Part shown: positions 16,865 through 51,616 of the stretch, piece by piece | Layout of the letters: each line of letters begins with the position of its first letter | How positions within the stretch are numbered: position 1 is the stretch's first letter | NCBI GenBank assembly: GCA_903937405.1 | Contig: CAIZZE010000008.1 | Location: 8,641-72,640 of the forward strand | Length of the DNA stretch: 64,000 nt | Origin: an uncultured Alphaproteobacteria bacterium | GTDB lineage: Bacteria; Pseudomonadota; Alphaproteobacteria; Rickettsiales; UBA1997 | Reading direction: 5' to 3' | The notes under the pieces: generated by a model | Databases searched by the model: none | What the model was told of the DNA's origin: nothing | What the model saw: the letters and a program-made list of their open reading frames with translations, nothing else | Program-made: the position numbers and the translations under genes

Positions 16865-18093
16865 TGATTGAAGAAAGTAAATTGCCGAAAGGCTGGGAAG
16901 TGAAGAAGTTGGGTGAGGTTTGTTTGACAACGAGTGGTGGAACACCAAACAGAGGAAATAAAGAATTCTATGAAGGCGCTATCCCTTGGGTTAAATCTGG
17001 CGAGTTAGACAGAGGTCTAATTTTGGAGACGGAGGAAAGAATTTCTGAAGAGGCAATTAAAAATTCGAGCGCAAAAATATTTCCTAAAGGAACTTTATTG
17101 ATTGCTCTGTATGGTGCGACAATCGGAAAGTTAGCCTTTCTTGGTATAGATGCAGCCTCAAACCAAGCGGTATGCGGCATCTTTAAGAGCGAAAAAATAA
17201 ACTCAAACTATCTGTTCAATTTTCTTTTTTATAAGAAACCAACTCTAGTTAAACAAAGTATTGGTGGTGCCCAGCCAAACATTAGTCAGGGAATTTTAAA
17301 AAATTTAGAAATTCCGATTCCATCAATAGATGAGCAACAAAAAATCGTCACAAAAATTGAAGAGCTTTTTAGTCAGTTAGAAAATGGCAAACAGCAACTT
17401 TTAACCGCACAAAAACAACTAAAAACCTACCGCCAAAGCCTACTAAAAAGTGCCTTTGAAGGCAAACTAACCAATCAAAATCTAAAAGCCGGCGAATTGC
17501 CGAATGGGTGGAAAACGTTAAAAGTTCTTGAGCTTGGAGAAATATCAACAGGATCGACACCGTCAAAATCCAATCCTGCATTTTATTCGAATAAATTTCC
17601 TTTTTACAAACCAACTGACTTAGAAGCTGGGTACAATGTTAGAAAGTCATCGGACAATTTATCGGACTTGGGAATTAAGGAAGCTAGATTTCTTCCAGCT
17701 AACTCAATACTCGTAACTTGTATAGGTGCAACAATAGGAAAAACAGGAATCATTCGGAGAGAAGGAGCTAGTAATCAACAAATAAATACAATTATTCCAT
17801 CAAAAAATCTTGATCCAAATTTTATTTATTACCAAGCGATTGCACCGAAATTTCAGAAGACAATCAAAGACAATTATTCTCAAACAACTTTACCAATTTT
17901 AAATAAGTCAAAATTTCAAAATCTTGAGATGAATATTTGTTCACTTCCCGAACAACAAAAAATAGTCGCCATCTTAGAATCAAAACTAACCATCTGCGAC
18001 AAAATAGAAGAAACCATCAAAACCAGTTTACAACAAAGCGAAACCTTGCGCCAAAGCATTCTAAAAAAAGCTTTTGAAGGGCGGTTGGTTTAA
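16864..18093 (+). CDS. hsdS: type I restriction-modification specificity subunit
   Basis: Two target-recognition domains separated by duplicated conserved helices (EQQKIV...LRQSLLKSAFEGKL and EQQKIV...LRQSILKKAFEGRL). ATGA overlap with the hsdR stop. Confidence 0.9.
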   Translation: MIEESKLPKGWEVKKLGEVCLTTSGGTPNRGNKEFYEGAIPWVKSGELDRGLILETEERISEEAIKNSSAKIFPKGTLLIALYGATIGKLAFLGIDAASNQAVCGIFKSEKINSNYLFNFLFYKKPTLVKQSIGGAQPNISQGILKNLEIPIPSIDEQQKIVTKIEELFSQLENGKQQLLTAQKQLKTYRQSLLKSAFEGKLTNQNLKAGELPNGWKTLKVLELGEISTGSTPSKSNPAFYSNKFPFYKPTDLEAGYNVRKSSDNLSDLGIKEARFLPANSILVTCIGATIGKTGIIRREGASNQQINTIIPSKNLDPNFIYYQAIAPKFQKTIKDNYSQTTLPILNKSKFQNLEMNICSLPEQQKIVAILESKLTICDKIEETIKTSLQQSETLRQSILKKAFEGRLV

Positions 18094-18120
18094 ATTAAAG
18101 AAAATTAAATTATTAAAAAA

Positions 18121-19611
18121 ATGAGCAAAAATACTTCTTCAATAGTTTCAAAAGTTTGGAGCTTTTGTAATCCTCTTCGCGATGTTGGTGTTGGTTATGG
18201 CGACTATTTAGAACAACTTACTTATTTGCTGTTTTTGAAAATGGCTGATGAATATGTCAAGCCTCCGCATAATAGAGAAAATAAAATTCCAGCTGGTTTT
18301 GGTTGGGAAAGTTTAACCAACAAAAAAGGCGCAGAGCTTGAGCTGCATTATTCAAGATTGCTTCGTGAGTTAAGCAGTGAAAAAGGAATTTTGGGACAAA
18401 TTTTTGTTAAGAGCCAAAATAAAATTCAAGATCCAGCAATGCTTGCCAAGATTATTGACATGATTCACTTAGAGCAATGGTTGGTAATGGGCGCTGATGT
18501 GAAGGGTGATATTTATGAAAGTCTTTTAGAGCAAAATGCGCAAGATGTGAAAAGTGGAGCGGGACAATATTTTACGCCGCGTCCTTTAATTAAAGCCATG
18601 GTTGAATGCATTAGACCTTTGCCAAATAAAACAATTGCTGACCCAGCTTGCGGCACTGGCGGCTTCTTTTTAGCGGCTTATGATTATTTGGTTGCCAATA
18701 ATAAGTTTGATAAAGAGCAAAATAAGTTTTTGAAGAACTCAACTTTTTATGGAAATGAAATTGTTGCAAGCACGCGCCGATTAGCTTTGATGAATTTGTT
18801 TTTGCATAATATTGGCGACATTGACAGCGCAAATTTTATTTCTCCTGCCGACGCTTTAATTGCAGCCTCGCCAACAACTTATGATTATATTTTAGCTAAC
18901 CCGCCATTTGGCAAAAAAAGCAGCCAAACTTTTACCAACGAAGAAGGCGAGCAAGAAAAAGATGATTTAACCTACAATCGCCAAGACTTTTGGGCAACCA
19001 CCAGCAACAAACAGTTAAACTTTGTTCAGCATATTAGAACGATGTTAAAAACCACCGGACTTGCTGCCGTTGTGGTTCCAGACAATGTTTTGTTTGAAGG
19101 CGGAGCTGGTGAAACTGTGCGCAAAAAGCTTTTAGAAACAACTGATCTTCACACAATTTTGCGCTTACCAACGGGAATATTTTATGCTCAAGGCGTGAAA
19201 GCCAATGTGATTTTCTTTGATAATAAACCAGCCAGCAAAACCGCTTGGACAAAGGAAGTTTGGGTTTATGATTACAGAACAAACATTCACCACACTCTAA
19301 AAAGAAACCCGCTTAAATTCGAAGATTTAAAAGATTTTATTGAGTGCTACAACCCGCTAAACAGAAATAAACGCAAAGAAACTTTTAATGCAGAAACAAA
19401 CCCCGAAGGGCGTTTTAGAAAATTTTCTTACGAAGAAATTATTGCTCGCGATAAAACCAGTTTAGATATTTCTTGGATTAAAGATAAATCCTTGGCTGAT
19501 CTTGATAATCTTCCAGATCCAGAAATTTTGGCTGAAGATATTATTGAGAATTTAGAAGCTGGGCTTGCGAGTTTTAGAGAGATTGCGGCGGTTTTAAGTA
19601 CAAGTAAATAG
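18121..19611 (+). CDS. hsdM: type I restriction-modification N6-adenine DNA methyltransferase subunit
   Basis: GQYFTPRPL, DPACGTGGF (SAM motif I) and ANPPFG (motif IV, NPPF). Confidence 0.95.
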   Translation: MSKNTSSIVSKVWSFCNPLRDVGVGYGDYLEQLTYLLFLKMADEYVKPPHNRENKIPAGFGWESLTNKKGAELELHYSRLLRELSSEKGILGQIFVKSQNKIQDPAMLAKIIDMIHLEQWLVMGADVKGDIYESLLEQNAQDVKSGAGQYFTPRPLIKAMVECIRPLPNKTIADPACGTGGFFLAAYDYLVANNKFDKEQNKFLKNSTFYGNEIVASTRRLALMNLFLHNIGDIDSANFISPADALIAASPTTYDYILANPPFGKKSSQTFTNEEGEQEKDDLTYNRQDFWATTSNKQLNFVQHIRTMLKTTGLAAVVVPDNVLFEGGAGETVRKKLLETTDLHTILRLPTGIFYAQGVKANVIFFDNKPASKTAWTKEVWVYDYRTNIHHTLKRNPLKFEDLKDFIECYNPLNRNKRKETFNAETNPEGRFRKFSYEEIIARDKTSLDISWIKDKSLADLDNLPDPEILAEDIIENLEAGLASFREIAAVLSTSK

Positions 19612-28771: not shown

Positions 28772-30085
28772 TTGAAATCAATTCACAAATTCATGAAATC
28801 CAAGCTTACAAAAAGACCAGATCCGGAGATAGACGAGCAGGAAGATGAAGGAGAAAGTGCGGAAGTCGGAGCAAGTGGTCCCGCGATTGCAGCGGCAAAA
28901 AAAAGTAAAATGGCGATAATCGCTGCCTCATCAATTTTGATTACGGTAGTGGTTTATTTTATGTTTTTTAAAGCTGATGAGCCAAAAAAAGAAAATCTTG
29001 AAGAAGTAGCGCCACCACCATCAAGAGTAGCGACAAGCGAGGAAGGAAAATCTCCATTTGAAATTGAAGCTCCAGAAAAAAAAGAAGATGTTTCGTTATT
29101 AGATAAGCCGGCAAAACCTGATGTTCCAACTTTACCGGAACTTCCTGAAGGAATGGAGCCGCAGTCTGAGCAAGTTCTTCCAACGGCAAATCCACAACAA
29201 AATCCTCAAGCTCCGCAGCAATTATTGCCTACGCAAAATATGCCAGGTCAGCAAAATAACAATCCGACGCAGGTTAATCCGCAAAATCCGGAAAAAACCA
29301 AAGATACTGATCCGCGCTATGCTCCAATAATTGTTTTTGGCGGCACGGCGGAGGGCACACCATCTCGTGGCGTTGGTTATGAAAATAATATTGTAAACTT
29401 GAATCAGGATCCGATCAATAAATTACAAAAAAGTAAAACTGGAGTTACTGCGACTTTTATTGGTGATCGTGCTCACACCATTGCTCAAGGTAAATTATTA
29501 AGTGCGGTTTTAGAAACGGCGATTAACACTGAAATTCCCGGCTTTGTGCGCGCAATAATTAGCCGTGATGTTTATGCAGAAGCAGGCAATCAAATTCTGG
29601 TTCCGCGCGGCTCAAGATTATTTGGAACTTATTCCAGTAAAATTACGCGCGGTCAGGGTAGGGTTGAAATAGCTTGGACGCGTTTAATCAGGCCAGATGG
29701 TGTTGACATGTCAGTTAGTTTTAATGCTTCTGATCAATTTGGCAGATCGGGAATTCCGGGAGATGTTGATAATAAATATAGTGCTCTCGTCGCCAATTCA
29801 ATGTTGACAAGTATTCTTGCAGTTGGTGGTGTTTCAGCAGCGCAGAAACTTTTAGGAAGTGGTAGTCAGTTAAATACGACAACAACTAATCCAACTCAAG
29901 GCACAACTACAACTACTGGAAGCGCTGCTAACCAAGCAATTTACGACGTAAGTAAAACAATCATTGATACTGTGGGACAGGTAATTGGATCTACACTTAA
30001 TTCCAATCCGGTTATACGTGTTCCTCAAGGTACCAGAATTACTGTGGTGGTGAATTCTGATATTAACATTCCATCAATGAAATAA
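28772..30085 (+). CDS. virB10: type IV secretion system protein VirB10 (TrbI family)
   Basis: TM segment, Pro/Gln-rich linker, then VPRGSRLFGTYSS...RVEIAWTRLIRPDG...DQFGRSGIPGDVDNKY conserved TrbI core. Confidence 0.9.
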   Translation: MKSIHKFMKSKLTKRPDPEIDEQEDEGESAEVGASGPAIAAAKKSKMAIIAASSILITVVVYFMFFKADEPKKENLEEVAPPPSRVATSEEGKSPFEIEAPEKKEDVSLLDKPAKPDVPTLPELPEGMEPQSEQVLPTANPQQNPQAPQQLLPTQNMPGQQNNNPTQVNPQNPEKTKDTDPRYAPIIVFGGTAEGTPSRGVGYENNIVNLNQDPINKLQKSKTGVTATFIGDRAHTIAQGKLLSAVLETAINTEIPGFVRAIISRDVYAEAGNQILVPRGSRLFGTYSSKITRGQGRVEIAWTRLIRPDGVDMSVSFNASDQFGRSGIPGDVDNKYSALVANSMLTSILAVGGVSAAQKLLGSGSQLNTTTTNPTQGTTTTTGSAANQAIYDVSKTIIDTVGQVIGSTLNSNPVIRVPQGTRITVVVNSDINIPSMK

Positions 30086-33269: not shown

Positions 33270-33364
33270 ATAGATCCTGAAACAAGTTCAGGATGACGTA
33301 GTTGGTGTTAAGTTCGAGTGCAAATTCTCCCACATCGTCATCCTGAACTTGATTCAGGATCTAT
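33270..33364. repeat. HP1 palindromic element (full)
   Basis: ATAGATCCTGAAACAAGTTCAGGATGAC ... GTCATCCTGAACTTGATTCAGGATCTAT, between galU and fabD. Confidence 0.9.
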
Positions 33365-34549: not shown

Positions 34550-34625
34550 TGGTGGAGATATGCGGGTTCGAACCGCAGACCCCCTGCTTGCAAAGCAGGT
34601 GCTCTACCAACTGAGCTATATCCCC
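34550..34625 (-). tRNA. tRNA-Ala (anticodon UGC), CCA encoded
   Basis: Reverse complement GGGGATATAGCTCAGTTGGTAGAGCACCTGCTTTGCAAGCAGGGGGTCTGCGGTTCGAACCCGCATATCTCCACCA folds as a cloverleaf of 76 nt. G3:U70 identity pair. Anticodon loop TTTGCAA. Confidence 0.95.
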
Positions 34626-34767
34626 AATGTTTTTTAAAATTCCAAAAACAAGGTCGCGGAAAATAGAATTGACAAACGAATTGTCAAAGTGTTTTTTGCA
34701 AATTAATTGAATTAATTTTTCTGGCTGGTTTAAAAAAATAAAAATCCAAATTCTTCAATTTTTTAAA

Positions 34768-36378
34768 ATGTTAAAAAAAGCTTTTAGTTTAATCGAGTTA
34801 TCAATAGCAATCGTGGTTATCTCAATTCTGATTGTGGGATTTTTAAACGTTTCAAGTGGCAAGAACAGCAATAATAAGGTGAAAATCACCAAAGATCGTA
34901 TAGATATAGTTTATAAATCTCTTGGCGAATTTGTGCTGAAAAATAAAAGATTGCCTTGTCCAGCTTCAATTAAGGCAATTAAAACTAGGGATGCAAATTA
35001 TGGAATTGAAGGAACTGCTGCTGGAATATGCACTTCCGGAACGGGCGTTTATCTTTCAACCGCAAGTGGCGCAACTAATATGGTTTATGGAATGATTCCG
35101 GTTAAATCTTTGGGGTTAAGCAATGATTATGGAGAAGATGGGTTTGGCAGTAAATTTGCTTATATTGTAGATAAAACTTACACAACAGGCGCGACATTTC
35201 CCACTTCCAGCGGCAGCATTTTGATTCAGAAATATATTAATGACGCTTATGTTTCTGATTCCAATAACGCCATTTTTGCCATCATAAGTTATGGGCCAAA
35301 TAAGAGTAGCTCTTTTAATGCTAACTCAAGTTCACAAAATATACTTACTTCAGATGCCGATGAAATGTTTAATGATCCAATAACTTTAAATGATAATGAT
35401 GGCGCCAAAACCGCTGATTTTAGCCAGACATTGGTTAATTCTAGTGAGCGTAGCACTACATTTGATGATATAGTTTTTTACAAAAGTCGTGATCAATTTT
35501 TAAAAGATAGTAAGGCTGCAAATATAGTTAATGGCAATATTACTTCGAGTGCTAATATTACTGCCCAGAATTGTACTGGCGGAGTTATATCTTCAGTTTC
35601 GGGATCGACTGTTCATACCTTTAAAACAAGCGCAACCCTTGATTGTTTAAATAAAGGCACAAGAACAGCGCAACTATTGGTAGTGGCTGGTGGTGGTAGT
35701 GGTGGTGCACATTCCAACACAGATGGTATTGGTGGTGGTGGTGGTGGTGGTGTTTTTTATGCGTCAGAAGTTTCTTTAGATGCTGCTCAATACTATGTCA
35801 CAGTGGGTGCTGGAGCAACAGGATCCTCAGGTCTTGCTGGAAATAATGGTGGTAACAGTTCTTTTAAACAATACAACACTAGCACTGCTTTAGTAACAGT
35901 AGTTGGTGGCGGTGGCGGAGGTGGCAATGGATCTGAAGCCAGACCAGGTGGTTCTGGCGGAGGTGGGTGGCAATCAGGTGGTGCTGGAGGCGCTTCTAAA
36001 ACTGGTAGTAAAGATGTTAGTGTTAGCGGCGATTTCTATGGAAATAATGGAGGTAGCTCTACCGGAAGCGCTGGAGGTGGTGGCGGAGGTGCATCTGCAG
36101 CTGGCGGAAGTGCATCTACTAGCAATGGTGGGGATGGAGGTAGTGGCTTTACATCTTATATTTCTGGCCCTTATTCTGGTTCTGGCCCACTTCCAGTTTA
36201 TGGGTCTGGTGGTGGAGGTAATGGCACTGGCACAAAAGGTCTCGGCGGAACTAATGCTGGCGATGCAGGAACCGCCAATAAAAATGCCGTGAGTAATTTT
36301 GGTGGTGGTGGTGGCGCTGTAAAAGGTAATAATCCCGGTGGCTCTGGTGGTTCAGGAGTGGTCATAATTCGTTACTAA
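34768..36378 (+). CDS. type IV pilin-like protein (class III signal peptide) with C-terminal glycine-rich domain (paralog P1)
   Basis: MLKKA|FSLIELSIAIVVISILIV is a prepilin N-methylation motif with Glu at +5. About 240 aa are shared with P2/P3 (RLPCPAS, VYGMIPVK.LGL, EDGFG.KFAYIVDK, SYG.NKS, FDDIVFYK). aa 269-536 are Gly-rich (VVAGGGSGG...GGSGGSGVVIIRY). Confidence 0.7.
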   Translation: MLKKAFSLIELSIAIVVISILIVGFLNVSSGKNSNNKVKITKDRIDIVYKSLGEFVLKNKRLPCPASIKAIKTRDANYGIEGTAAGICTSGTGVYLSTASGATNMVYGMIPVKSLGLSNDYGEDGFGSKFAYIVDKTYTTGATFPTSSGSILIQKYINDAYVSDSNNAIFAIISYGPNKSSSFNANSSSQNILTSDADEMFNDPITLNDNDGAKTADFSQTLVNSSERSTTFDDIVFYKSRDQFLKDSKAANIVNGNITSSANITAQNCTGGVISSVSGSTVHTFKTSATLDCLNKGTRTAQLLVVAGGGSGGAHSNTDGIGGGGGGGVFYASEVSLDAAQYYVTVGAGATGSSGLAGNNGGNSSFKQYNTSTALVTVVGGGGGGGNGSEARPGGSGGGGWQSGGAGGASKTGSKDVSVSGDFYGNNGGSSTGSAGGGGGGASAAGGSASTSNGGDGGSGFTSYISGPYSGSGPLPVYGSGGGGNGTGTKGLGGTNAGDAGTANKNAVSNFGGGGGAVKGNNPGGSGGSGVVIIRY

Positions 36379-36379
36379 A

Positions 36380-36406
36380 CTTGAGATTTACCATCTCAAG
36401 TTTTTT
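36380..36406 (+). terminator. rho-independent terminator after P1
   Basis: CTTGAGAT (36380-36387) pairs with ATCTCAAG (36393-36400), followed by a T6 run. Confidence 0.65.
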
Positions 36407-36559
36407 ATGACATTGTCAAATTTGTTTCCATCAGTGCAAAGGCGTTTGATTTTTTATTTCTCTTCTACCGAAGAGCCATCTTGAGGTAAGTTGTAATAGC
36501 CCAAACTTTAGGAACCTCTAAAAATTAGAAATAAATTTATGAAATTTTTTTAGAAAAAA

Positions 36560-37507
36560 ATGCAAAAAAAAGCTTACAGTCTAATCGAACTCTCAATCGT
36601 AATTTTAATCATCTCAATCCTGATTAGTGGCGCATTAACGGTTTTTAGTGGTTCGGCAAATAATAAAAAAATCACCACCACCAAAAACCGTATTGATGAA
36701 ATTTACAAAGCTTTGGGAGGATTTTTGCTTGTAAATGGCAGATTACCTTGCCCAGCTTCGATTATTGCAATAAAATCTACTGACGCAACTTATGGAACTG
36801 AAGGAACTGCCGCTGGAAACTGCACGGCTGGTGGTGGAGTTTATGCTTCGGGATCGTCTAATTTGGTTTACGGATTAGTGCCGGTAAAAACTTTAGGATT
36901 ACCAAATGAATATGCTGAAGATGGTTTTGAAGGTAAATTTGCTTACATTGTAGAAAAAAATTTCACCACTAGCTCAAGCTCAACAACTTTCAAAAACGCT
37001 ATTGCAACTGCAACCATGACTTTAAATGAGCTTCCGGGAGGTGTTAGTCAGGTTATTACCAATGATGCAATTTTGGCTTTAGTTAGTTATGGAGCGAATA
37101 AGTCTGGGGCTTTCAATGCTAATGGTACAGTTCAAAACACTCGCTCAAGTGATAGCAGTGAAATGGAAAATGATCTTGGTGCCAGTAACGCTTTTGATAA
37201 AAATCTGGTTTTTAATGCGCCCGATAGTGATGTTTTTGATGACATAGTTTTTTACAAAACTAGAAATTCTTTAGTTTCAGATTTTGATGCATTTTCGCTG
37301 GTTAATTGTTTGGCTGGCACTTTAAATCTTTCATATCCTACGGCAGCAGCATATTCTTGGCCTGAATCTTCTTATAACCAAGTTGTTCTTTCTACAACTT
37401 CATGTCCTGCGCCTTACACAACTACTGTTAGATATCCCACCAGAAGATGTGGTGCTTTCGGAGTTTGGGAAAGTAGCGTTATAAATCCTTGTACTAGTAC
37501 TACGTAA
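36560..37507 (+). CDS. type IV pilin-like protein with C-terminal sushi/CCP-like 4-Cys domain (paralog P2)
   Basis: MQKKA|YSLIELSIVILIISIL class III signal. The shared pilin-like core is as in P1. The last 62 aa have spacing C-x31-C-x14-C-x13-C with STTSCPAPY...PTRRCGAFGVWESSVINPC. Confidence 0.7.
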   Translation: MQKKAYSLIELSIVILIISILISGALTVFSGSANNKKITTTKNRIDEIYKALGGFLLVNGRLPCPASIIAIKSTDATYGTEGTAAGNCTAGGGVYASGSSNLVYGLVPVKTLGLPNEYAEDGFEGKFAYIVEKNFTTSSSSTTFKNAIATATMTLNELPGGVSQVITNDAILALVSYGANKSGAFNANGTVQNTRSSDSSEMENDLGASNAFDKNLVFNAPDSDVFDDIVFYKTRNSLVSDFDAFSLVNCLAGTLNLSYPTAAAYSWPESSYNQVVLSTTSCPAPYTTTVRYPTRRCGAFGVWESSVINPCTSTT

Positions 37508-37509
37508 AA

Positions 37510-38451
37510 ATGATGAAAAAAAATTTAAAAAAAACAGCATTTAGTTTAATCGAAATTTCAATCGTGGTTTTGATTATTGCGATTTTAATCACCGGATCTT
37601 TATCTAGTTCGATTACAGCAATCAATAACGCCAAACTAAAATCAACGCGTGATCGCATGGATGAAATTTACAAAGCCTTGGGAAATTATTTATTGGTTAA
37701 TGGCAAATTACCATGTCCGGCGTCGCTTCTGGAATTAAAATCTAGCTCAGCAACTTATGGAACTTCTGTCGGAACAGCGGGAACTTGTTCTGGAGCCGGA
37801 GTTTATGTTTCTTCAGTCGCGACTAATTTGGTTTACGGAATGGTTCCGGTAAAAACTTTAGGATTGAGTAATGATTTAGCTGAAGATGGTTTTGAAGATA
37901 AAATTGCTTATATTGTAGATAAAAATTTCACCGGCGCAAGCTTTGGAACCGCTACTTCAACTGCAACAATGACAATTAAGGAAGTCTCTGGAAGCTTTAC
38001 AAACACAATTACCACTGATGCGATTTTTGCTTTGGTTAGTTATGGCATTAATAGATCAGGTTCTTTCCCGATTAATTCAGCAACGCAAATTGCTAGATCA
38101 AGTTCTTCTACGGAAATGACAAATGATCTTGATAGCATCAGCAGTCCGACTTTCGACAAGATTTTATTCAGGGAGGCTGCTAATTTTGATGATGTAGTTT
38201 TTTATAAAACCAGAAATAATTTATTGCTTGATTTCGGAGCTTTATCTTTGGTGCCATGTCAGGCTGAAGTGTTAAGTTTAAATTACGGAAGCGCTGCAGA
38301 TTATAACTTTGCCCAAGGTTCGTATGATCAATTGGTGGTTTCAACAACGCAATGTCCTGTTGGCTATAGATCGACTACTAATTATCCAACCAGAAGATGT
38401 GGTGCATTTGGGGCTTGGGATTCGGTGGCGGTAAATCCTTGTACGCCGTAA
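37510..38451 (+). CDS. type IV pilin-like protein with C-terminal sushi/CCP-like 4-Cys domain (paralog P3)
   Basis: KKTA|FSLIEISIVVLIIAIL class III signal. Starts 2 nt after the P2 stop. Same C-x31-C-x14-C-x13-C tail (STTQCPVGY...PTRRCGAFGAWDSVAVNPC). Confidence 0.7.
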   Translation: MMKKNLKKTAFSLIEISIVVLIIAILITGSLSSSITAINNAKLKSTRDRMDEIYKALGNYLLVNGKLPCPASLLELKSSSATYGTSVGTAGTCSGAGVYVSSVATNLVYGMVPVKTLGLSNDLAEDGFEDKIAYIVDKNFTGASFGTATSTATMTIKEVSGSFTNTITTDAIFALVSYGINRSGSFPINSATQIARSSSSTEMTNDLDSISSPTFDKILFREAANFDDVVFYKTRNNLLLDFGALSLVPCQAEVLSLNYGSAADYNFAQGSYDQLVVSTTQCPVGYRSTTNYPTRRCGAFGAWDSVAVNPCTP

Positions 38452-38474: not shown

Positions 38475-38502
38475 GTCATCCTGAACTTGTTTCAGGATCT
38501 AT
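38475..38502. repeat. HP1 half-element (single right arm), likely acting as terminator hairpin after P3
   Basis: GTCATCCTGAACTTGTTTCAGGATCTAT followed by TTTTTAA. No left arm is present. Confidence 0.8.
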
Positions 38503-39387: not shown

Positions 39388-39468
39388 ATAGATCCTGAAA
39401 CAAGTTCAGGATGACAGATTGGGCAGATCTTTCCCCCATCGTCATCCTGAACTTGTTTCAGGATCTAT
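39388..39468. repeat. HP1 palindromic element (full, short core)
   Basis: ATAGATCCTGAAACAAGTTCAGGATGAC ... GTCATCCTGAACTTGTTTCAGGATCTAT with a 25-nt core. Confidence 0.9.
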
Positions 39469-40052: not shown

Positions 40053-43000
40053 CTAAGTACAATCACAATTACCAATTATTGCACAAGATGGAGGACCATA
40101 ATAATCTTTTTCTGGTAGACAGTCGATATTTGCCCATGAAGCATTACCGCCCCAATTATTAGCGCAACCGCATCGACCAAGTACCTGATATTCATTATCT
40201 ACACATTTTAAGAAAAAATTGCTTTCGGTGCCCCCATCATGGTTTTGATGCTGACACCAACTTTGAGTGCCATTGTGGATTGAAGCAAATGGAGTAAAAG
40301 TATATTTTATACCATCTGCTCCATAAATTCCGTAAGTATCGTCACGTTTTTTACCTTTTGTAGCAAAGCAGTAGGTTTTACCAGTTGCTTTGCTGTCTGA
40401 TGAAGTGCAACCCCTGCAAGCTGAGCAAGCATTAGAAACTGATCCCCAAGATCCGCTTGCGTTACAAGTTATTGTTGGAGATATATCTGTTCTATCATAT
40501 GCGTTTCTTCCGCAATTATTGTCATAACTTCCGGTTGTTCCTCGATCTATAGCTTTTCCATATCCAGATGCGCAGGCCAGAGTTATGGTGGTGCCGCCCG
40601 CGGCATAAGTGTTGCCAGAGTAGGTGTGTCCCGCAGGAATATTGTCGCCTGTTGTATTGCAGTATTTCATACATTTCTTGCCGCTATTTGCGATTGCGTC
40701 AAAATAGAGTTGATCGATGTAATTAAATCCATTTGAAGAAGCATAGGAACATGTATAATTTGTGATCGCTGATTTGTTATTAGAGTCAACATAATCTGAT
40801 TCCATATATCCAGTTTTACAAATTTTTGTAGTAGGTGATTCACCAAGCGGAACATAGTGACTGGTTGTATCATAATTTGCGTTACTATCAACATCATCAG
40901 TAGAAGTTACGGTATCATTGTCATCGACAATCATACCATTATTGGCAACGCATTGAGGTACTACATCATCCCATTTATGAGTAGTTCCGTTACATTTTCT
41001 CGCCAAAGCATAATAACCAACACCACTAGAAGCGCCAATTCGATTTCTTTGGTAATGAGTAGCATTTTGACTGGTAAGAATAGGATTAGTTATATAGGCC
41101 GTAACCCCGAAATTTGTATCAGGCCAGTTAACGGTAATAGTTACTGCGTTATTGCTTCCATCATTTGCAGAAGTTGAGTGTTGAGTTCTACCAGCCCCGA
41201 TTCTTGAGTCTCCAGTTCCGACGCCAGTATAAGAATCTACGGAATAGCCAACACATTTATTGACGCAGCTTGAAGAAGTAGTGCTCCAAACATTTGCAGT
41301 TCCATTGGTAATGATGACCGAACGACAAACTCTTTGTGGGAGAGCTTCAACTGCTCGAGTATCATTAGCAAGGTTGGTGGGAATTGTTGTCAATGTGCTA
41401 TTTGTTCCACTATCGGTGCGGTAAGGTCCGCTGTCGCTAATTGTAAATGGAGTGCCGTCTTTATTATTAAGTGCTGGATATGGATATGGATAATAGTCGC
41501 TTTGACAACCGCCATTTCCAGAATCTGTCGTGACCACGCCATCAACCTGACCATTCAAAGGAACTCCGGTTACTTTGTTCCAATAAGCCTTACCACTTCC
41601 TGGAGAAGTTGTTATTGTCGCATCGCATTGAGTAGTGCAAGGATTTATAACTGGACCCCAATTTCCCATGTGATCACAATTACGCGTTGGGCTAATGCCG
41701 CTATCTGGATCGGCAGAAGTTTGGTCAACCCTAAAGAAACCTAAAGATTGATTGCCACCACCACATGATCCAGTTGCAACTGATTCTGTTTGAATACGAA
41801 GCGGGCTTCTTGAAGCATTGGTAGTAGGGAAGGTTGCGCCACCAGAATTATACCATGCTTGCCAATCGCTCGTAGTTGTAGGGTTTGTCGGTAAAGTAGG
41901 GGCGGAACATTGAATTCTGACGCAAGCATTTGTTACAGTTCCCCATTGGCCAATTTGATTGCAAGATCTGGTTGGAGTAGTTCCGCCGGTATAATCTTGA
42001 ATTGGTCCAAAGAATGGTCCGCCGGGATCTGTTGTTGCAACTTTACTGCCGATGGTAGTTGAAGTTGCTCCGGTTTTTTTGAAGCCTGTAATGCAAGAAA
42101 CAAAAGGGTTTGGAGAAGTTGGTGTTTCTAGGAAATCATTGGTTTTAGTGTAAGATGTCCAAGTAGCAAAACCATGTTCTGATCCTTTTGTACCAGAAAG
42201 GGCGTCCGGAGATCGATAGTTTACTTCATTAACTTCAAGCGCTCCATAACCACCTTGATAAAGACCATTTTTATCTGGTCCGGTTGTTGAAACTGCATCG
42301 CAGGTATAGCGTACGCAAGGATTAGTAACGGTTGCATTCCATTGCGCTGCTCCACTAACATTCAGACAACTTCTTTTTGGCGGAGTAACTACGCCGGCGC
42401 CATTTGTAGCAGGGCGCCAGAATCCGGTACAAATTCCTTCAATATCATACATGCCAAAAACTCCAAGTGGGAATTCAGCATGGCCAGTTCCGTCAGTACG
42501 TAATTGATGTGAAATATGAACGACATTACTTGTAACTGAAGATGAAGCGCCGTAAGTAGAATAACCTAATGAAGATTGAGTAAAATCAGGATCGCTTGGG
42601 TTTAAAATATTTGCTGTGGTGTTATAATCAATTGCGCTGCAAATTTGCGGAAGCGGCATGGTAACGCAAAGACCAGCTTCATGGGTAGTCTCAGTTCTAG
42701 CTATTTGATCATCTGCAAGTGTAGCTCCATCTACATAAGCTATACATCTACAATCAGGAGCCTTACCGCCTTCTCGACAAGAAGCTGGGTTGTCTACTAA
42801 GCATTTACCTCGAGTTCCGTCAGTCATTTTGTAAGCTACAATCTTTCTTAATTTTGTTGTAAAGCCAGAGCTGACGCAAATTTCATTGAACCAGCCATAA
42901 TAATTGCCGGTTGCAGCAGCAGAAAGGTTGGTATTGGTCACGGTTGAAGTGTCAGAAGTAGTGTTGCCTTTTTTCTTATTGCATAGCGGTAGCAGAACTT

Positions 43001-45920
43001 CGTTACAATTTTTTCTAACTGCAAGATATGAATCTATTGGTCGTCCGGCATTTTTCTCGGTTTGTATCTTTAATTCATTGGCGATGCATTCGTTAGTAAG
43101 TTGTGAACATTCTTCGCGTTGAACGCAAAGATTATATGATTCAGTCGTGGAGCTACAGGTTGGAATATTAACATTACTATTAGTCAATTTTATTTCTGCG
43201 CTACAGGCATCATCAACTGTGCAACTATTATCAGTTCCATTAGCACCAAATCCACCTAAGTAACGGATCATAATAGAGGAATTGCTGTAAGTACTTGCTG
43301 GGTCGAGATAAACCATCATTTTTTTAGGACCTGTTGCCGGCAATGGTGATGTAGTAGTATTGTTAATTTCCGGTAAAATTCTATCAACACATCCAATTCT
43401 CATTGGGTTAAGGTATGCGCCGTTAATGTCTTTAATTTTACGGTAAAGGCAGAAAATTGGTTTTGATCCTGCATCATCATATTCTTTGCGCACAAAAGTT
43501 TCTAAAGAATAGGTAACATTATTTACAGTGGTGCTTATTGTAGCGCTACCATTAGAATCGCCACCGCTATCTTCATAGCCTGTATATCCTATTCCTAAAC
43601 TAAGTTTTTTTGTAGTGGTGCCAAATTGAAGGATAATTTCTGGATAGTGGAAATCAGTCGGTCCATATTCTTCATTAGCTACACTAGAAATTGAGCCACC
43701 ACGAACTATAGAAGAATTTAGAATATAAAGTGGCGGAGTAAAAAGTTTGGGAGAATTTGTAATATTCGCTAAATTGAAAAGAGGTGGCGTGGCAATTCTC
43801 AATGCAGTTTTGATACATTCCTGCTCTGGAAATAATCGGCTGTCTTTATCTAAATATCCCCTTACTGTGCTACCTAATGGTCGATTATTTTGAATATAAG
43901 GAATATGGTTTGATCCACCGAGTTTGATAGCACGCCATCTGGTGGCTTCGGATTTATCGTCAAAAGAACTTTTGCCGCCATCGCACGATCCATCAGATTT
44001 GCGCAAGCCAGAAATACAAGTTCCATCAATTAATTTTTCAGAATCATCAAGGAAATTTAAGGGGTTGGAGGAATTCGGATATGCTGTTTGACCTTTAACA
44101 TCAAGGAAAGTACAAATTCGGTTACCGGGATATTTGACTGCTCTGATTCTGAGATAATCATCAATAACAGCAGTACAATTTTTGGTGTTACTATTAGAAT
44201 TTAGAAACATATCATCATCCATCATACATTCAGTTGGATCAGCATCGGTTACGGTAAGTTCACGACAAACATCATAGCCACAAACCTGATTTGAACAGTT
44301 ATTGAATGCGCAGCTAATACCACATTCACGGGAACCACAGGTTTCAGATGTTCCGTCATCGGGACGCATTGCATTTTTAAAGCGCAAACAAACAACTAAT
44401 TTATGGGTTCCAGAATTATTAGTAAAGGTAGTTGAAACATAACCTTTGTGGTAGGCAGTGTAATCAGAAACATTGGAATATAAGCTTCCACCATTGCCGC
44501 AAAGATAAATATAACCATTGCCGCGGGAGCCATCGCGAATACCACCACACAGACCAGGAGATCTGGTATGGTCTGGTAATAAATAAGAATGATAATATCC
44601 CAGATCAATTTCTCCTAAAAGTCCCAAATCAATTGTTGGGCGTATACCCCAACCAAAGCTTTCCATTTGTGATGGGGTATAACATAAATTAGCATTCATG
44701 GTTCTCAATATTCCATTTCCATCAATTGATTTATCCATCGGCTTAGGTCTATAAAACCATGAATCCATGGTATCAGAAGTTGAGCCAATTGTTCCGTCAT
44801 CATATGCAGTTGAGGTTATGCATTCAGGTTGGGAGTTATTGGAAGATTGATTGCAATCAATTGTAAGATAACAATAGCTATTGGTGCAAGTTGCTCCTGC
44901 TCCGCTTGAATCGCAAGAATCATTGAGCCCTGTAGGTTCTTTAGCATCAGTTGGGGTGCAGCGATATTGTCTTTTTACAACTGGTTTGCAAGTAACAGTT
45001 GTACAAATACCTGTTTCTACAGAATACTTGGCATTAACATATTTTTCATAATCAGCGGTGTAAGATTCACCTTGATTAGTGATATTTAAAGTATCATCAG
45101 ATCCACAAGAGGATGAGGAAGGAGGGCAGTTGTGAATTTTGCATGTGGTGTTTAAAACCATATAAGGCAATTGTGCCTGAGTAAATTTATAGCATTTTAA
45201 GGTTGATCCATCTGTAGCCGTATCGCCATTACAATATTTTTTTGGTGTGTAAGATGAGTTTGCTGCTACTGCATCTGCTACTGCATCTGATTCTGTTCTA
45301 AATTTCCAATCATTTAGCTCATCAGGAGTCAACAAATTACAAGGAAGTAAATCGCAATTTACAGTTGGAGATGGTGAACTGGTTTGATGGCAGCGCCGAC
45401 CAATAGAATTGGAAGTAGTTGCAGTTACACCGGATTCTGGAGCATCACTAAATCTGATGCAATCGCGGTTATGTACGGCATAGTCAACACCTCTAACGTT
45501 ATGCGGTTCGCGGCTCGGATCAGGATCGGTAAAAGATCTATCGCTACATTCTCTAACGCAATTTTTTCCAGGATTAGCAGTAGAATCAATATCGCTACAC
45601 AAAGGCAAGTCGGACAAGTCAGCGCAATTATAGCGGTGAATTTGACCGGAAGTTAAAACATAGGCTGAACTAACTGCGTAAGTAGCGCTTGGAACTGTTT
45701 GGCAAAGCGGCATTCCGAAAAATTTGCAACCACCATCTTCAATATTAGCATAACCTGGTTTTGGAGTTCCTGCAACATCAGCGCAATCAGGAAGAGCAAC
45801 AGAATGAGTTTGGGGAGAATAGAAAAAAAGTGAAATCCCGAAAATTAAAACGCCAAAACCCGACAAGCGTTTTGCAGCTTTTATGAGTTTAGCGATTTTT
45901 TTAGGATTTATATAATTCAT
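40053..45920 (-). CDS. giant (1955 aa) cysteine-rich secreted/surface protein with repeated sushi/CCP-like modules
   Basis: Uninterrupted 6-kb ORF. Start chosen at ATG 45920 (MNYINPKKIAKLIKAAKRLSGFGVLIFGISLFFY, a signal-peptide-like n- and h-region). The upstream part of the track ORF lies inside murD. Very Cys-, Thr-, Ser-, Asn- and Gly-rich. Repeated C..G[FY]...P[TK]R.C...G.W....N[PA]C modules occur in the C-terminal third. Confidence 0.8.
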   Translation of the reverse strand: MNYINPKKIAKLIKAAKRLSGFGVLIFGISLFFYSPQTHSVALPDCADVAGTPKPGYANIEDGGCKFFGMPLCQTVPSATYAVSSAYVLTSGQIHRYNCADLSDLPLCSDIDSTANPGKNCVRECSDRSFTDPDPSREPHNVRGVDYAVHNRDCIRFSDAPESGVTATTSNSIGRRCHQTSSPSPTVNCDLLPCNLLTPDELNDWKFRTESDAVADAVAANSSYTPKKYCNGDTATDGSTLKCYKFTQAQLPYMVLNTTCKIHNCPPSSSSCGSDDTLNITNQGESYTADYEKYVNAKYSVETGICTTVTCKPVVKRQYRCTPTDAKEPTGLNDSCDSSGAGATCTNSYCYLTIDCNQSSNNSQPECITSTAYDDGTIGSTSDTMDSWFYRPKPMDKSIDGNGILRTMNANLCYTPSQMESFGWGIRPTIDLGLLGEIDLGYYHSYLLPDHTRSPGLCGGIRDGSRGNGYIYLCGNGGSLYSNVSDYTAYHKGYVSTTFTNNSGTHKLVVCLRFKNAMRPDDGTSETCGSRECGISCAFNNCSNQVCGYDVCRELTVTDADPTECMMDDDMFLNSNSNTKNCTAVIDDYLRIRAVKYPGNRICTFLDVKGQTAYPNSSNPLNFLDDSEKLIDGTCISGLRKSDGSCDGGKSSFDDKSEATRWRAIKLGGSNHIPYIQNNRPLGSTVRGYLDKDSRLFPEQECIKTALRIATPPLFNLANITNSPKLFTPPLYILNSSIVRGGSISSVANEEYGPTDFHYPEIILQFGTTTKKLSLGIGYTGYEDSGGDSNGSATISTTVNNVTYSLETFVRKEYDDAGSKPIFCLYRKIKDINGAYLNPMRIGCVDRILPEINNTTTSPLPATGPKKMMVYLDPASTYSNSSIMIRYLGGFGANGTDNSCTVDDACSAEIKLTNSNVNIPTCSSTTESYNLCVQREECSQLTNECIANELKIQTEKNAGRPIDSYLAVRKNCNEVLLPLCNKKKGNTTSDTSTVTNTNLSAAATGNYYGWFNEICVSSGFTTKLRKIVAYKMTDGTRGKCLVDNPASCREGGKAPDCRCIAYVDGATLADDQIARTETTHEAGLCVTMPLPQICSAIDYNTTANILNPSDPDFTQSSLGYSTYGASSSVTSNVVHISHQLRTDGTGHAEFPLGVFGMYDIEGICTGFWRPATNGAGVVTPPKRSCLNVSGAAQWNATVTNPCVRYTCDAVSTTGPDKNGLYQGGYGALEVNEVNYRSPDALSGTKGSEHGFATWTSYTKTNDFLETPTSPNPFVSCITGFKKTGATSTTIGSKVATTDPGGPFFGPIQDYTGGTTPTRSCNQIGQWGTVTNACVRIQCSAPTLPTNPTTTSDWQAWYNSGGATFPTTNASRSPLRIQTESVATGSCGGGNQSLGFFRVDQTSADPDSGISPTRNCDHMGNWGPVINPCTTQCDATITTSPGSGKAYWNKVTGVPLNGQVDGVVTTDSGNGGCQSDYYPYPYPALNNKDGTPFTISDSGPYRTDSGTNSTLTTIPTNLANDTRAVEALPQRVCRSVIITNGTANVWSTTSSSCVNKCVGYSVDSYTGVGTGDSRIGAGRTQHSTSANDGSNNAVTITVNWPDTNFGVTAYITNPILTSQNATHYQRNRIGASSGVGYYALARKCNGTTHKWDDVVPQCVANNGMIVDDNDTVTSTDDVDSNANYDTTSHYVPLGESPTTKICKTGYMESDYVDSNNKSAITNYTCSYASSNGFNYIDQLYFDAIANSGKKCMKYCNTTGDNIPAGHTYSGNTYAAGGTTITLACASGYGKAIDRGTTGSYDNNCGRNAYDRTDISPTITCNASGSWGSVSNACSACRGCTSSDSKATGKTYCFATKGKKRDDTYGIYGADGIKYTFTPFASIHNGTQSWCQHQNHDGGTESNFFLKCVDNEYQVLGRCGCANNWGGNASWANIDCLPEKDYYGPPSCAIIGNCDCT

Positions 45921-47286
45921 CAAAAAGCTTACAGAAGTAGTCTCCGCGCTGTTCAAAATTTTTCCATTGATCGAACGACGCACAAGCGGGTGAAAGTAAA
46001 ATGTTCTTTTCAGATAAGCCAACATTTTTTGCATCAAAAAATGCTTTTTTAAAAGCGCTTTCCAAATCGCCACATTTTTCAAAAGCGACGGAATTTTCTT
46101 TTAAGGTTTTAGCAAATTCTTCGCTGGCATCACCAATCAAATAAGCTTTGTGAATTTTATGAAAAAATGGTGTTAAAATTGAAATGCCGCCTTCTTTGGA
46201 TTTGCCGCCTAAAATCCAGAAAATTTTATTGTAAGCTTTCAGTGCATTTTCAGTTGATTCAGCGTTAGTTGCTTTGCTGTCATTAATAAATTTGATCCCT
46301 TCAATTTCACCAAGCAATTGCAAGCGATGACGCAAGCCACGGAATTTTTTGATGGCAGAAATTATTTTTTCTTCATCACATTTCTGTGAATGTCTAAGGA
46401 AATGACAATAAGTTATGGCGAAAGCGAAAGCCATATTTTGATCATTATGTTCGCCGCGCAGGAAATCAGATTTTAATTCTAAAACTGAGTTAGCGCCGTT
46501 GATTTTATTATATAAATTTCCACCAAAAAGTGCGATACCATTTTCCTGAATTTCTTTGGTAGAAATCGGAACTAAAGTAGCGTGAAAATTTTTATCTTTT
46601 TTTAATTCATCATAAACTTTTTTGGAATTTTCATTATCCACGTCAATTAAAGCGAAATCATCAGCGGTTTGGTTTTGAAAAATTCTTTTTTTGGCTGCAA
46701 TGTAATTTTCAATCGATCCATGGCGATCAATATGATCTGGCGTGATATTTAAAAGTGCCGCGACCTTGAAATGTGAATGCCCAAAAAGATCAAGCTGGTA
46801 AGAAGAAGTTTCAAAAATATAAGAAAATTTTTTTTGATTTTGCGGTAAATCAAAACAAGGAATACCAATATTGCCGCCAATTTCTGAAGCGATTTCTAGT
46901 TCTTTAAAAATAAAACCGCTTAATGCTGTGGTTGTCGATTTGCCGTTGGTTCCGGTGATGGCGATGAAATTATTATTTTCACAATTTTTGCGATAAAAAA
47001 TTTCCAAGTCGCAAGCTAAAGTAGCGCCGGTTTTTTGGCAGATTTCTAAAATTTTATGTGGTTGTGGATAATAAAGTGGAATTCCGGGAGAAAAGACAAT
47101 TACAGTGTCTTTGTCATATTTAATTTCATCAGCTTTAGCAAATTTGATGTGAGGGTTTTTGGTGCTGGCGTCAATAAGTGATTTTTCATTGTCATCGGTG
47201 GCGATAACTTCTTCGCCATTTTGAGCGAGAAAATTTACTGCAGAAATTCCAGAAATTCCCAGACCATAAACAACGTATTTTGTCAT
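45901..47286 (-). CDS. murD: UDP-N-acetylmuramoylalanine--D-glutamate ligase
   Basis: YGLGISG N-terminus, ITGTNGKSTT (P-loop), and overall Mur ligase layout. 461 aa. Confidence 0.95.
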   Translation of the reverse strand: MTKYVVYGLGISGISAVNFLAQNGEEVIATDDNEKSLIDASTKNPHIKFAKADEIKYDKDTVIVFSPGIPLYYPQPHKILEICQKTGATLACDLEIFYRKNCENNNFIAITGTNGKSTTTALSGFIFKELEIASEIGGNIGIPCFDLPQNQKKFSYIFETSSYQLDLFGHSHFKVAALLNITPDHIDRHGSIENYIAAKKRIFQNQTADDFALIDVDNENSKKVYDELKKDKNFHATLVPISTKEIQENGIALFGGNLYNKINGANSVLELKSDFLRGEHNDQNMAFAFAITYCHFLRHSQKCDEEKIISAIKKFRGLRHRLQLLGEIEGIKFINDSKATNAESTENALKAYNKIFWILGGKSKEGGISILTPFFHKIHKAYLIGDASEEFAKTLKENSVAFEKCGDLESAFKKAFFDAKNVGLSEKNILLSPACASFDQWKNFEQRGDYFCKLFDELYKS

Positions 47287-51533: not shown

Positions 51534-51616
51534 ATAGATCCTGAAACGAGTTCAGGATGACGACTTTGGCGAGATTTTTTTGATATTTCGTCATCCTGAA
51601 CTCGTTTCAGGATCTA
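51534..51616. repeat. HP1 palindromic element (full)
   Basis: ATAGATCCTGAAACGAGTTCAGGATGAC ... GTCATCCTGAACTCGTTTCAGGATCTA, between slt and purF. The arm mutations are compensatory (G/C pair). Confidence 0.9.

Follow-up and report, generated by a model that had tools for sequence, protein, structure and literature searches.

A modular pilin-like protein with an exchangeable glycine-rich domain of phage tail-fibre type in an uncultured Rickettsiales-like alphaproteobacterium

Described systems related to the P1 locus

Modular pilins have been described in which a class III signal peptide and a pilin module are followed by a short linker and a bulky domain that is also found outside pilus biology, such as the vWA domain of PilB and the lectin domain of PilC in Streptococcus sanguinis (Raynaud et al. 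2021, PMC8179133). Here we analysed a window of 64,000 nucleotides (nt) from an uncultured alphaproteobacterium of the Rickettsiales lineage UBA1997; the window was the whole stretch from position 8,641 to 72,640 on the forward strand of contig CAIZZE010000008.1 (GenBank assembly GCA_903937405.1). An open reading frame (ORF) at 34768..36378 (+) of this window encoded a protein of 536 amino acids (aa), designated P1, that had the same general layout. Namely, the ORF itself, domain searches and an AlphaFold2 (AF2) model divided P1 into a leader, a pilin module, a linker and a Gly_rich_2 module. We estimated with a probability of about 0.6 that P1 was a modular type IV pilin-like subunit that carried a swappable, phage-type glycine-rich binding head on a filament.

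By analogy with the modular pilins, adhesion by a filament-displayed module would be expected for P1 (PMC8179133). However, Gly_rich_2 was not among the frequent architectures named in the excerpted text of that paper, and P1 also differed from the proteins presented there in that its carrier of about 250 aa had no recognisable solved relative, its leader ended in Ala and its module was swapped or lost between close strains. Both modular pilins and the glycine-rich domain were known, and their combination was present in databases only under generic automatic names. Our literature searches for PF21722 or the glycine-rich domain together with pilins returned nothing relevant, and no paper that we found mentioned the fusion. 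In this respect, the original prediction, which was made from the sequence alone and considered the attachment of such a domain to a prepilin leader to be undescribed, still stood. On the other hand, the fusion was not unique to this window since it was found in at least 35 protein clusters and in six other pilin-type proteins.

The module itself resembled the receptor-binding domains of cyanophage Pam3 gp24 (7YPX/7YFW), Salmonella phage S16 gp38 (6F45) and mycobacteriophages Bxb1 (9D93) and Jabs. In Pam3 gp24, the strands of a TNF-like sandwich run into a four-layer lattice of glycine-rich motifs and a hypervariable distal tip recognises the host; the same paper reports the likeness of gp24 to S16 gp38 and to ALK (7LIR) (PMC9608196). 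For S16 and for mycobacteriophages, the loops of the domain have been proposed to bind the host, and the mycobacteriophage work names it the polyglycine-rich domain. P1 had the same Pfam-level domain, the same predicted fold and a glycine scaffold with variable loops, and its domain was likewise placed at the C-terminal and presumably distal end of a fibre protein. Unlike the phage domains, which are mounted on a trimeric tail-fibre shaft, it was joined to a pilin helix, and its identity to the solved structures was 19-24%. No chaperone gene resembling Pam3 gp25 was identified adjoining P1. The glycine-rich domains of ALK and LTK showed a weaker structural resemblance to the P1 domain (Foldseek E~1e-3, with E=8e-4 for ALK 7lir, and target-normalised template-modelling (TM) scores of 0.18-0.30) and no sequence-profile match. 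Moreover, ALK and LTK were eukaryotic receptor kinases binding cytokines, unlike P1.

Pilin variation provided another comparison. In Neisseria pilE/pilS and in the Pseudomonas pilin allele groups, the N-terminal part of the pilin is conserved and the exposed C-terminal part is replaced by recombination. Similarly, the N-terminal part of P1 was kept and its exposed C-terminal part was replaced. In contrast to those systems, a whole autonomous domain of about 270 aa was swapped, and no silent cassettes were found within the 64-kb window. The large minor pilins of the filament tip could also be compared with P1. Pilins of the GspK type typically lack Glu5, whereas this residue was invariant in the P1 family, and the extra domains of CofB and GspK were of different folds. 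What they had in common with P1, according to the excerpted text on modular pilins, was a pilin module with added C-terminal or inserted domains and a location thought to be at the tip, as would hold for P1 (enterotoxigenic Escherichia coli CofB and GspK; PMC8179133).

Domain layout of P1 and its glycine-rich module

The AF2 model of P1, which was based on an alignment of 121 sequences, had a mean predicted local distance difference test (pLDDT) score of 91.1, so the whole protein was predicted to be ordered. In this model, a helix (aa 8-59) led into an alpha/beta head (aa 60-250), which was connected by a linker of low confidence (aa 257-265) to a C-terminal domain (aa 270-536; 35575..36375, +). 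From the Pfam, pLDDT and Foldseek results, the latter was predicted to be a Gly_rich_2 domain with a TNF-like sandwich and a polyglycine lattice. The Pfam family Gly_rich_2 (PF21722) matched aa 296-536 over profile positions 12-225 of 226 (E=3.8e-15, 57 bits against a cut-off of 24.3), and no Pfam families other than Gly_rich_2 and N_methyl matched P1 at E<=1. Glycine made up 32% of the segment (87 of 271 residues), whereas its share was 7% in the N-terminal half of P1 and 4-10% in 18 further ORFs from the window. The original prediction had drawn attention to this region at aa 269-536 (nt 35572-36375). The residues read exactly as it had quoted them and the glycine enrichment was far beyond chance. 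It had also denied a collagen-like G-X-Y periodicity; indeed, the glycines of the domain were arranged in runs from GGG to GGGGGGG, and the longest G-X-Y stretch was only four triplets.

Most of the domain had a pLDDT above 90 in the AF2 model. There were about 10 short strands, and most residues, notably those at aa 380-530, were assigned neither helix nor strand by DSSP. Because the confidence of the domain was high, the glycine-rich region was predicted to be folded and not disordered. The top Foldseek matches in the PDB were chains Qa and Qb of the mycobacteriophage Bxb1 tail tip (9d93; E=2e-7 to 1e-6, with E=2.2e-7 for Qa; probability 1.00), and the fibre protein gp24 of cyanophage Pam3 was matched as well (7ypx_A; E=1.2e-6, probability 1.00, target-normalised TM-score 0.51). 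An independent sequence-profile search found Pam3 gp24 at E=5e-4, and the matches to CCDC6 in the PDB profile search were rejected as poly-Gly artefacts. Among predicted viral structures, 278 matched at E<=1e-3, with a typical root-mean-square deviation of 2.5-4 Å over 250-300 columns and a typical identity of 30-40%; they included cyanophages, a Pelagibacter phage, prasinoviruses and a Halorubrum phage. Outside pilins, the domain was widespread, in viral as well as in other proteins.

The proposed kinship with a domain that occurs in tail fibres of phages, in giant viruses and in hypothetical proteins of bacteria was thus borne out by the Gly_rich_2 match, the Pam3 and Bxb1 structures and the viral models, and the suggested profile search and AlphaFold prediction gave a nearly end-to-end Pfam match and a domain pLDDT above 90. 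The beta-solenoid-like fold that had been suggested together with this kinship had to be abandoned: the strands of the model were few, and the significant Foldseek hits contained TNF-like and polyglycine matches instead of any beta-solenoid.

Conservation within the domain was highest in the glycine runs, where the mean frequency of the top residue was 0.76 in comparison to 0.40-0.49 in the indel-prone stretches between them. The conserved columns were the glycine runs together with a few hydrophobic strand residues. This combination of a scaffold with variable loops is the pattern described for Pam3 gp24 (PMC9608196). In the DNA, Tandem Repeats Finder detected a perfect (TGG)7.7 tract at 35730..35752 (+), which encoded the invariant G322-G328 run, as well as two shorter or imperfect TGG tracts at 35678-35707 and 36300-36314 (+). 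It had been proposed that GGN tracts of this kind might vary in length or phase between strains. We observed no such variation in the two strains that were compared: the locus L073 was 99.78% identical to the window over 21.6 kb, its glycine domain contained no substitution or indel, and its GGN tracts had the same length. The variation that was present consisted in the replacement of the whole module. Finally, an alternative-frame ORF of 129 aa with a TTG start (35903..36292, +) was not a gene but a Val/Ala/Leu/Glu-rich, frame-shifted reading of the GGN codons. Since other cassette alleles had different long open alternative frames (90-106 codons), this ORF fitted a shadow of the glycine-rich DNA, as had been assumed.

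At its N-terminus, P1 had the leader peptide MLKKA (34768..34782, +) followed by FSLIELSIAIVVISIL, and a prepilin-peptidase cut was predicted after Ala5, with Phe at +1 and Glu at +5. The score of TIGR02532 was 22.2 bits against a cut-off of 16.3, in agreement with the earlier suggestion that the glycine-rich domain was fused to a prepilin-type N-terminus. The start region read F6-S-L-I-E10-LSIAIVVISILIVGF and thus had the hydrophobic Phe at +1 and Glu at +5 as well as some 21 hydrophobic residues. In an alignment of 23 homologues, F6, L8, E10, L11 and S12 were invariant; across the family, position +1 was Phe in 135 of the 147 members and Tyr in the other 12. AF2 secondary structure and profile matches delimited a pilin module at aa 6-256 (34783..35535, +), in which the alpha1 helix (aa 8-59) preceded an alpha/beta head with the invariant cysteines C64 and C88. 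When this module was modelled separately, the prediction again comprised a helix (aa 8-59) and a head rich in beta structure (pLDDT 86, predicted TM-score (pTM) 0.80). Thermus PilA5, a geopilin and PilA were matched in a profile search at E=4e-4 to 6e-3, in the N-terminal part only. Judged from sequence and model, the N-terminal part of P1 appeared to fit a type IV pilin by its motif, its invariant Phe+1 and Glu+5 and its 52-residue helix. The two modules were joined by a linker at aa 257-268 (...NGNITSSANITAQN; 35536..35571, +) that had low model confidence (pLDDT <50 at aa 257-265) and, according to the junction alignment, held the 5' recombination junction.

Exchange of the glycine-rich cassette between strains

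The glycine-rich module was an exchangeable cassette, which is a new finding of this analysis. The cassette included the module and a 3' tail of about 140 nt (35557..36517, +), and its limits were derived from blastn breakpoints, the junction alignment and an allele without the cassette (P0122). At the allelic loci L074 and L076, unrelated sequence took its place, and in L078 it was missing. These alleles occupied one shared syntenic site with TrbI, a kinase, a sigma-54 regulator, GalU, FabD, tRNA-Ala, P1, P2 and P3, where the tRNA-Ala(UGC) gene was located just upstream of P1 on the opposite strand (34550..34625, -; given for context only).

The two modules of P1 differed strongly in their conservation between alleles. 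The pilin module and the glycine domain of the window were 92% and 49% identical to those of P0003, 93% and 38% to those of P0004, and 91% and 48% to those of P0005. For P0003 and P0004, the corresponding values were 99% and 39%, and for P0003 and P0008 they were 62% and 93%. In the DNA of L074 and L076, identity was 99.1% up to nt 783 of the gene, there was no detectable similarity in the module, and identity was 98.4% from 20 nt before the stop codon. The 5' junction was located in the conserved linker, where the identity between allele DNAs stopped after ...ACTTCGAGTGCTAAT (N-I-T-S-S-A-N), at about 35556-35557 in the window. In comparison to L074, the cassette of the window reached to about 36517 and contained its own terminator-like hairpin, an 11-bp stem followed by a U-run within the cassette tail immediately 3' of the P1 stop (36377..36406, +; RNA fold -11.5 kcal/mol, z=-5.3). 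Terminator-like sites were also present 3' of P3. The L078 orthologue P0122 (263 aa) was located at the same syntenic site and ended in that linker without a cassette. Since the module was replaced wholesale between otherwise near-identical strains, it showed the behaviour expected of a specificity determinant.

The nearest cassettes were carried by other members of the P1 pilin family and, to judge by sequence similarity, the donors appear to be alleles on such members. A phage donor was searched for by tblastn of the cassette against 50,697 phage genomes with the low-complexity filter on, and no close relative was found; a scan of IMG/VR also found no close relative.

P1 was followed in tandem by two paralogous pilin-like proteins, P2 (315 aa; 36560..37507, +; 51% identity to the P1 module) and P3 (313 aa; 37510..38451, +; 45% identity), and the prepilin motif and the head of about 250 aa were common to all three. 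Instead of the glycine domain, P2 and P3 had a small Cys-rich C-terminal module with four cysteines (..CPxxY..RYPTRRCGAFGxW..NPC) that gave a sub-threshold match to HRM, the hormone receptor domain of Pfam (20-23 bits against a cut-off of 26.2). No ORFs bearing a class III signal peptide other than these three were found in the window. The family of the carrier module comprised at least 155 protein clusters. The carrier stood by itself (<280 aa) in 10 of them, was combined with a small Cys-rich module as in P2 and P3 in about 100, and was combined with the glycine-rich domain in at least 35, some of which had Cys-rich inserts in between. Additionally, six pilin-type proteins whose N-terminal sequences were different also had Gly_rich_2; three of these proteins had canonical sites with Gly before Phe. 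The fusion of a pilin with Gly_rich_2 was therefore recurrent and no assembly accident. A scan of GTDB species genomes yielded 68 related loci, nearly all from lake or other aquatic metagenome-assembled genomes (MAGs) labelled Rickettsiales or Alphaproteobacteria; some of the loci were obviously mislabelled as 'Rickettsia typhi' or 'Rhizobium'.

Other combinations of modules were seen in some members of the family. In relatives of the P0019 type, the small four-Cys module described for P2 and P3 (aa 279-321 of P0019) was located between the pilin module and the glycine domain. One cluster, P0230, had the carrier fused to a C1q domain (PF00386), which we take to be another TNF-like fold, and one cluster, P0015, had the carrier with a different Cys-rich module.

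Several further differences between the strains were noted. Among the 37 mismatches that separated L073 from the window (21.6 kb, 99.78% identity), 18 fell within 35115-35358, a segment of 244 nt in the pilin head that corresponded to P1 codons 116-197, and they caused 8 amino-acid changes. Several of the variant residues were common to other alleles, and the segment resembled a small patch of recombined sequence within the carrier module. In L076, which had the P0004 cassette, homology to the window began about 9 nt past the 3' end of tRNA-Ala. Positions 1-1862 of this locus, upstream of that point and next to the tRNA gene, contained Peptidase_S24 repressor-like and HTH_17 genes, which suggested that an island or the remnant of a prophage had integrated at the tRNA. 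Another match was dropped from consideration: 76 nt located upstream of the tRNA gene had a match elsewhere in L074 but no second copy in the window. L078, the strain whose P1 orthologue had no glycine cassette, had a gene for a 437-aa ankyrin-repeat protein inserted after the P3 orthologue (9168-10481). Such proteins are typically encountered in bacteria interacting with eukaryotic cells.

Proposed function, alternatives and genomic surroundings

In the mechanism that we propose for P1, a prepilin peptidase would remove the short basic leader MLKKA after Ala5, so that Phe1 and Glu5 would be exposed. A carrier module able to enter a type IV filament would then be made up of the head of about 250 aa and the long, hydrophobic helix alpha1, and a flexible linker of about 12 residues would join this carrier to the glycine-rich module of about 270 aa of the phage tail-fibre type. 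The module would be displayed outside or at the tip of the filament, probably at the tip, where a receptor on the surface of a partner cell or substrate could be bound by its variable loops. The module would be swapped or removed by recombination, with the 5' exchange point in the conserved linker and the 3' one at the end of the gene or just past it. Since recombination replaces or removes the cassette, the carrier would be kept and the binding head would be changed between strains. The presence of the same locus with different glycine domains or with none suggests an adhesin with changeable specificity, and we infer by analogy with the described systems that P1 most likely functions as a pilus-displayed receptor-binding head.

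Modular pilins explain many of the functions that were gained by simple filaments, and the P1 family adds to them a module that has been characterised mainly in phage receptor-binding heads and, among animal proteins, in the ligand-binding domain of ALK/LTK. That a nearly identical carrier at the same locus has very different heads, or no head, suggests that binding specificity is under selection, and it provides natural swap variants for experiments. Environmental and basal Rickettsiales have been reported to encode type IV pili, which were proposed to be host-attachment devices (PMC9352585). Because the bacteria that carry P1-type proteins were environmental and labelled Rickettsiales, and pili were proposed to be an ancestral means of host attachment in this group (PMC9352585), these proteins were candidate adhesins that would make the pilus-attachment proposal testable. 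A broader and only tentative idea, which we consider rather doubtful, is that freshwater Rickettsiales-like bacteria recognise their partner or host by a type IV filament tipped with a TNF-like/polyglycine head, and that this head is re-targeted by cassette swaps at the linker from a gene pool that is shared across the pilin family and, ultimately, with phage tail fibres. If true, cells would here have an equivalent of the host-range switching known from phages, and there would be a concrete molecular handle on the attachment of early Rickettsiales to host cells.

A number of observations weighed against a pilus-borne binding head. The Pfam family N_methyl (PF07963) scored 19.3 bits on P1, just below its cut-off of 21.2; several members of the P1 family passed this cut-off. 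P1, P2 and P3 all had Ala rather than Gly at position -1, as was the case for 137 of the 147 family members (the remaining 10 had Gly). By contrast, the last residue of class III leaders in bacteria is described as being invariably Gly and as critical for processing (PMC4471445). The head had no significant match to a solved pilin in the Foldseek search of the PDB; the gonococcal pilin 2hi2 was the best match (E=1.4, target-normalised TM-score 0.34) and CofA was also among the best, both at E>1. The fold of the glycine-rich domain was assigned from a predicted model, and its TM-scores to solved structures were moderate (0.47-0.51 for Bxb1 and Pam3, target-normalised). Finally, genes for a prepilin peptidase, ATPase, platform protein or secretin were absent from the 64-kb window and from up to 10 kb around the gene in about 50 Rickettsiales-labelled loci. 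The machinery was searched for by tblastn with E. coli HofB, HofC, GspD, GspE, GspF, GspO, GspK and GspL against the window and 70 loci. Only four loci, all of them distant beta- or gammaproteobacterial ones, were matched, and they encoded a secretin, a TPR protein, an ATPase with an MshEN domain and a platform protein. Because of the Ala at -1 and the head without a significant solved-pilin match, we refer to the N-terminal part of P1 as a carrier module that is pilin-like and belongs to an uncharacterised family of proteins. The family-wide Ala at -1 also makes these proteins a useful test case for the specificity of prepilin peptidases.

Alternatively, P1 might not be a pilus subunit in the usual sense. 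It might be a class III signal-peptide protein that uses a type IV filament or type II secretion-like machine in another way, as a pseudopilin-type protein, a bindosome-like surface-anchored binder or the subunit of a very short fibre. We regard this explanation as possible although improbable. Relatives of P1 were named 'type II secretion system protein' or 'GspH family' in some sources, but such names derive from the N-terminal motif alone. The weak N-terminal similarity of P1 extended to GspG/GspH as much as to pilins, only the distant beta- and gammaproteobacterial relatives adjoined the secretin, TPR, MshEN ATPase and platform genes, and in archaea, the bindosome sets a precedent for binding proteins that have class III signal peptides (PMC4471445). 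On the other hand, the invariant Glu5 and the 52-residue alpha1 of P1 are features that are used for filament packing, and a bulky, variable, outward-facing module is what has been described for pilus-displayed modular pilins.

It is unlikely, in our estimate, that the N-terminus of P1 stays unprocessed because of the Ala at -1, in which case the helix would be a signal anchor in the inner membrane and the glycine-rich domain would be periplasmic. The prevalence of Ala in the family (137/147), the description of Gly as absolutely critical for processing (PMC4471445) and the lack of machinery genes near P1 would fit such an anchor. However, position -1 was always Ala or Gly, the two smallest residues, and Phe or Tyr at +1 and Glu at +5 were conserved family-wide, which argues for selection on a peptidase or assembly motif and not on a generic anchor. 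Reportedly, Ala was the one substitution at -1 that still permitted some cleavage in the work of Strom and Lory in 1991. Moreover, the replacement of the outer module from strain to strain would be hard to explain for a periplasmic protein.

That the glycine-rich part is no functional fusion but a fragment of a phage tail fibre, linked to the pilin gene through an assembly error or the recent insertion of a prophage, seemed very unlikely. The domain was indeed far commoner in viral proteins, and the L076 island with the Peptidase_S24 repressor-like and HTH_17 genes began at the adjacent tRNA-Ala. Nevertheless, the fusion was intact in at least 35 clusters from independent assemblies (ENA, JGI, NCBI and Logan), P1 was located in conserved housekeeping synteny with no phage genes near it in the window, and the closest relatives of the cassette came from the same pilin family rather than from the phage genome collection or IMG/VR.

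The last two explanations had hardly any probability. The perfect (TGG)7.7 repeat and the two further TGG tracts might indicate a disordered, low-complexity glycine linker of variable phase or size, but the domain had a pLDDT above 90, matched its Pfam model nearly end to end, had its most conserved columns in the glycine runs and was free of indels and substitutions in comparison to the 99.8%-identical strain; in addition, the TGG tracts would be unable to switch the reading frame because they are triplet repeats. A fibre that exposes a surface for ice binding or antifreeze activity in cold lake water was brought to mind by the lake origin of related MAGs and by a polyglycine-II type of structure that the P1 domain presumably shares with the snow-flea antifreeze protein, but the best structural matches were receptor-binding phage domains and ALK/LTK domains with a TNF-like sandwich and not flat polyglycine bundles, and the extreme diversity of the cassettes was unfit for a single invariant ligand such as ice.

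The surroundings of P1 in the window were those of an ordinary chromosome, with genes for purine synthesis, aconitase, SHMT, MurD and an NtrC-type regulator. A sigma-54 promoter for P1, suggested by the NtrC/PilR-type regulator three genes upstream, was rejected since there was no convincing TGGCAC-N5-TTGC in 34626-34767, and a scan for sigma-70 promoters upstream of P1 gave matches at chance level only. The window also contained a complete type I restriction-modification system (R, S and M genes) at 14063-19611 and a lone gene of the TrbI/VirB10 family at 28772-30085, with no other type IV secretion genes beside it. Among the loci with machinery genes, the distant gammaproteobacterial locus L060 had a pilin with 27% identity to the P1 carrier over about 147 aa at the end of a cluster of secretin, TPR, MshEN-ATPase and platform genes (3-10765), followed by four ORFs without a Pfam match. 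This arrangement is similar to that of an MSH-type pilus cluster.

A 21-nt palindrome, ATCCTGAACTTGTTTCAGGAT, had 10 copies in the window against 0 expected. The copies were located at 492-512, 560-580, 6455-6475, 33274-33294, 33340-33360, 38478-38498, 39392-39412, 39444-39464, 51538-51558 and 51593-51613. Those that were checked lay between ORFs, most were arranged in inverted pairs 50-70 nt apart, and one followed just after the P3 stop, which looks like a family of repeated extragenic palindromes of the REP/BIME (bacterial interspersed mosaic element) type. Additionally, a giant ORF at 40053-46082 (-) encoded 2009 aa without a Pfam match, and its length was 1955 aa in L073 and about 1980 aa in L078, where it was cut by the locus end.

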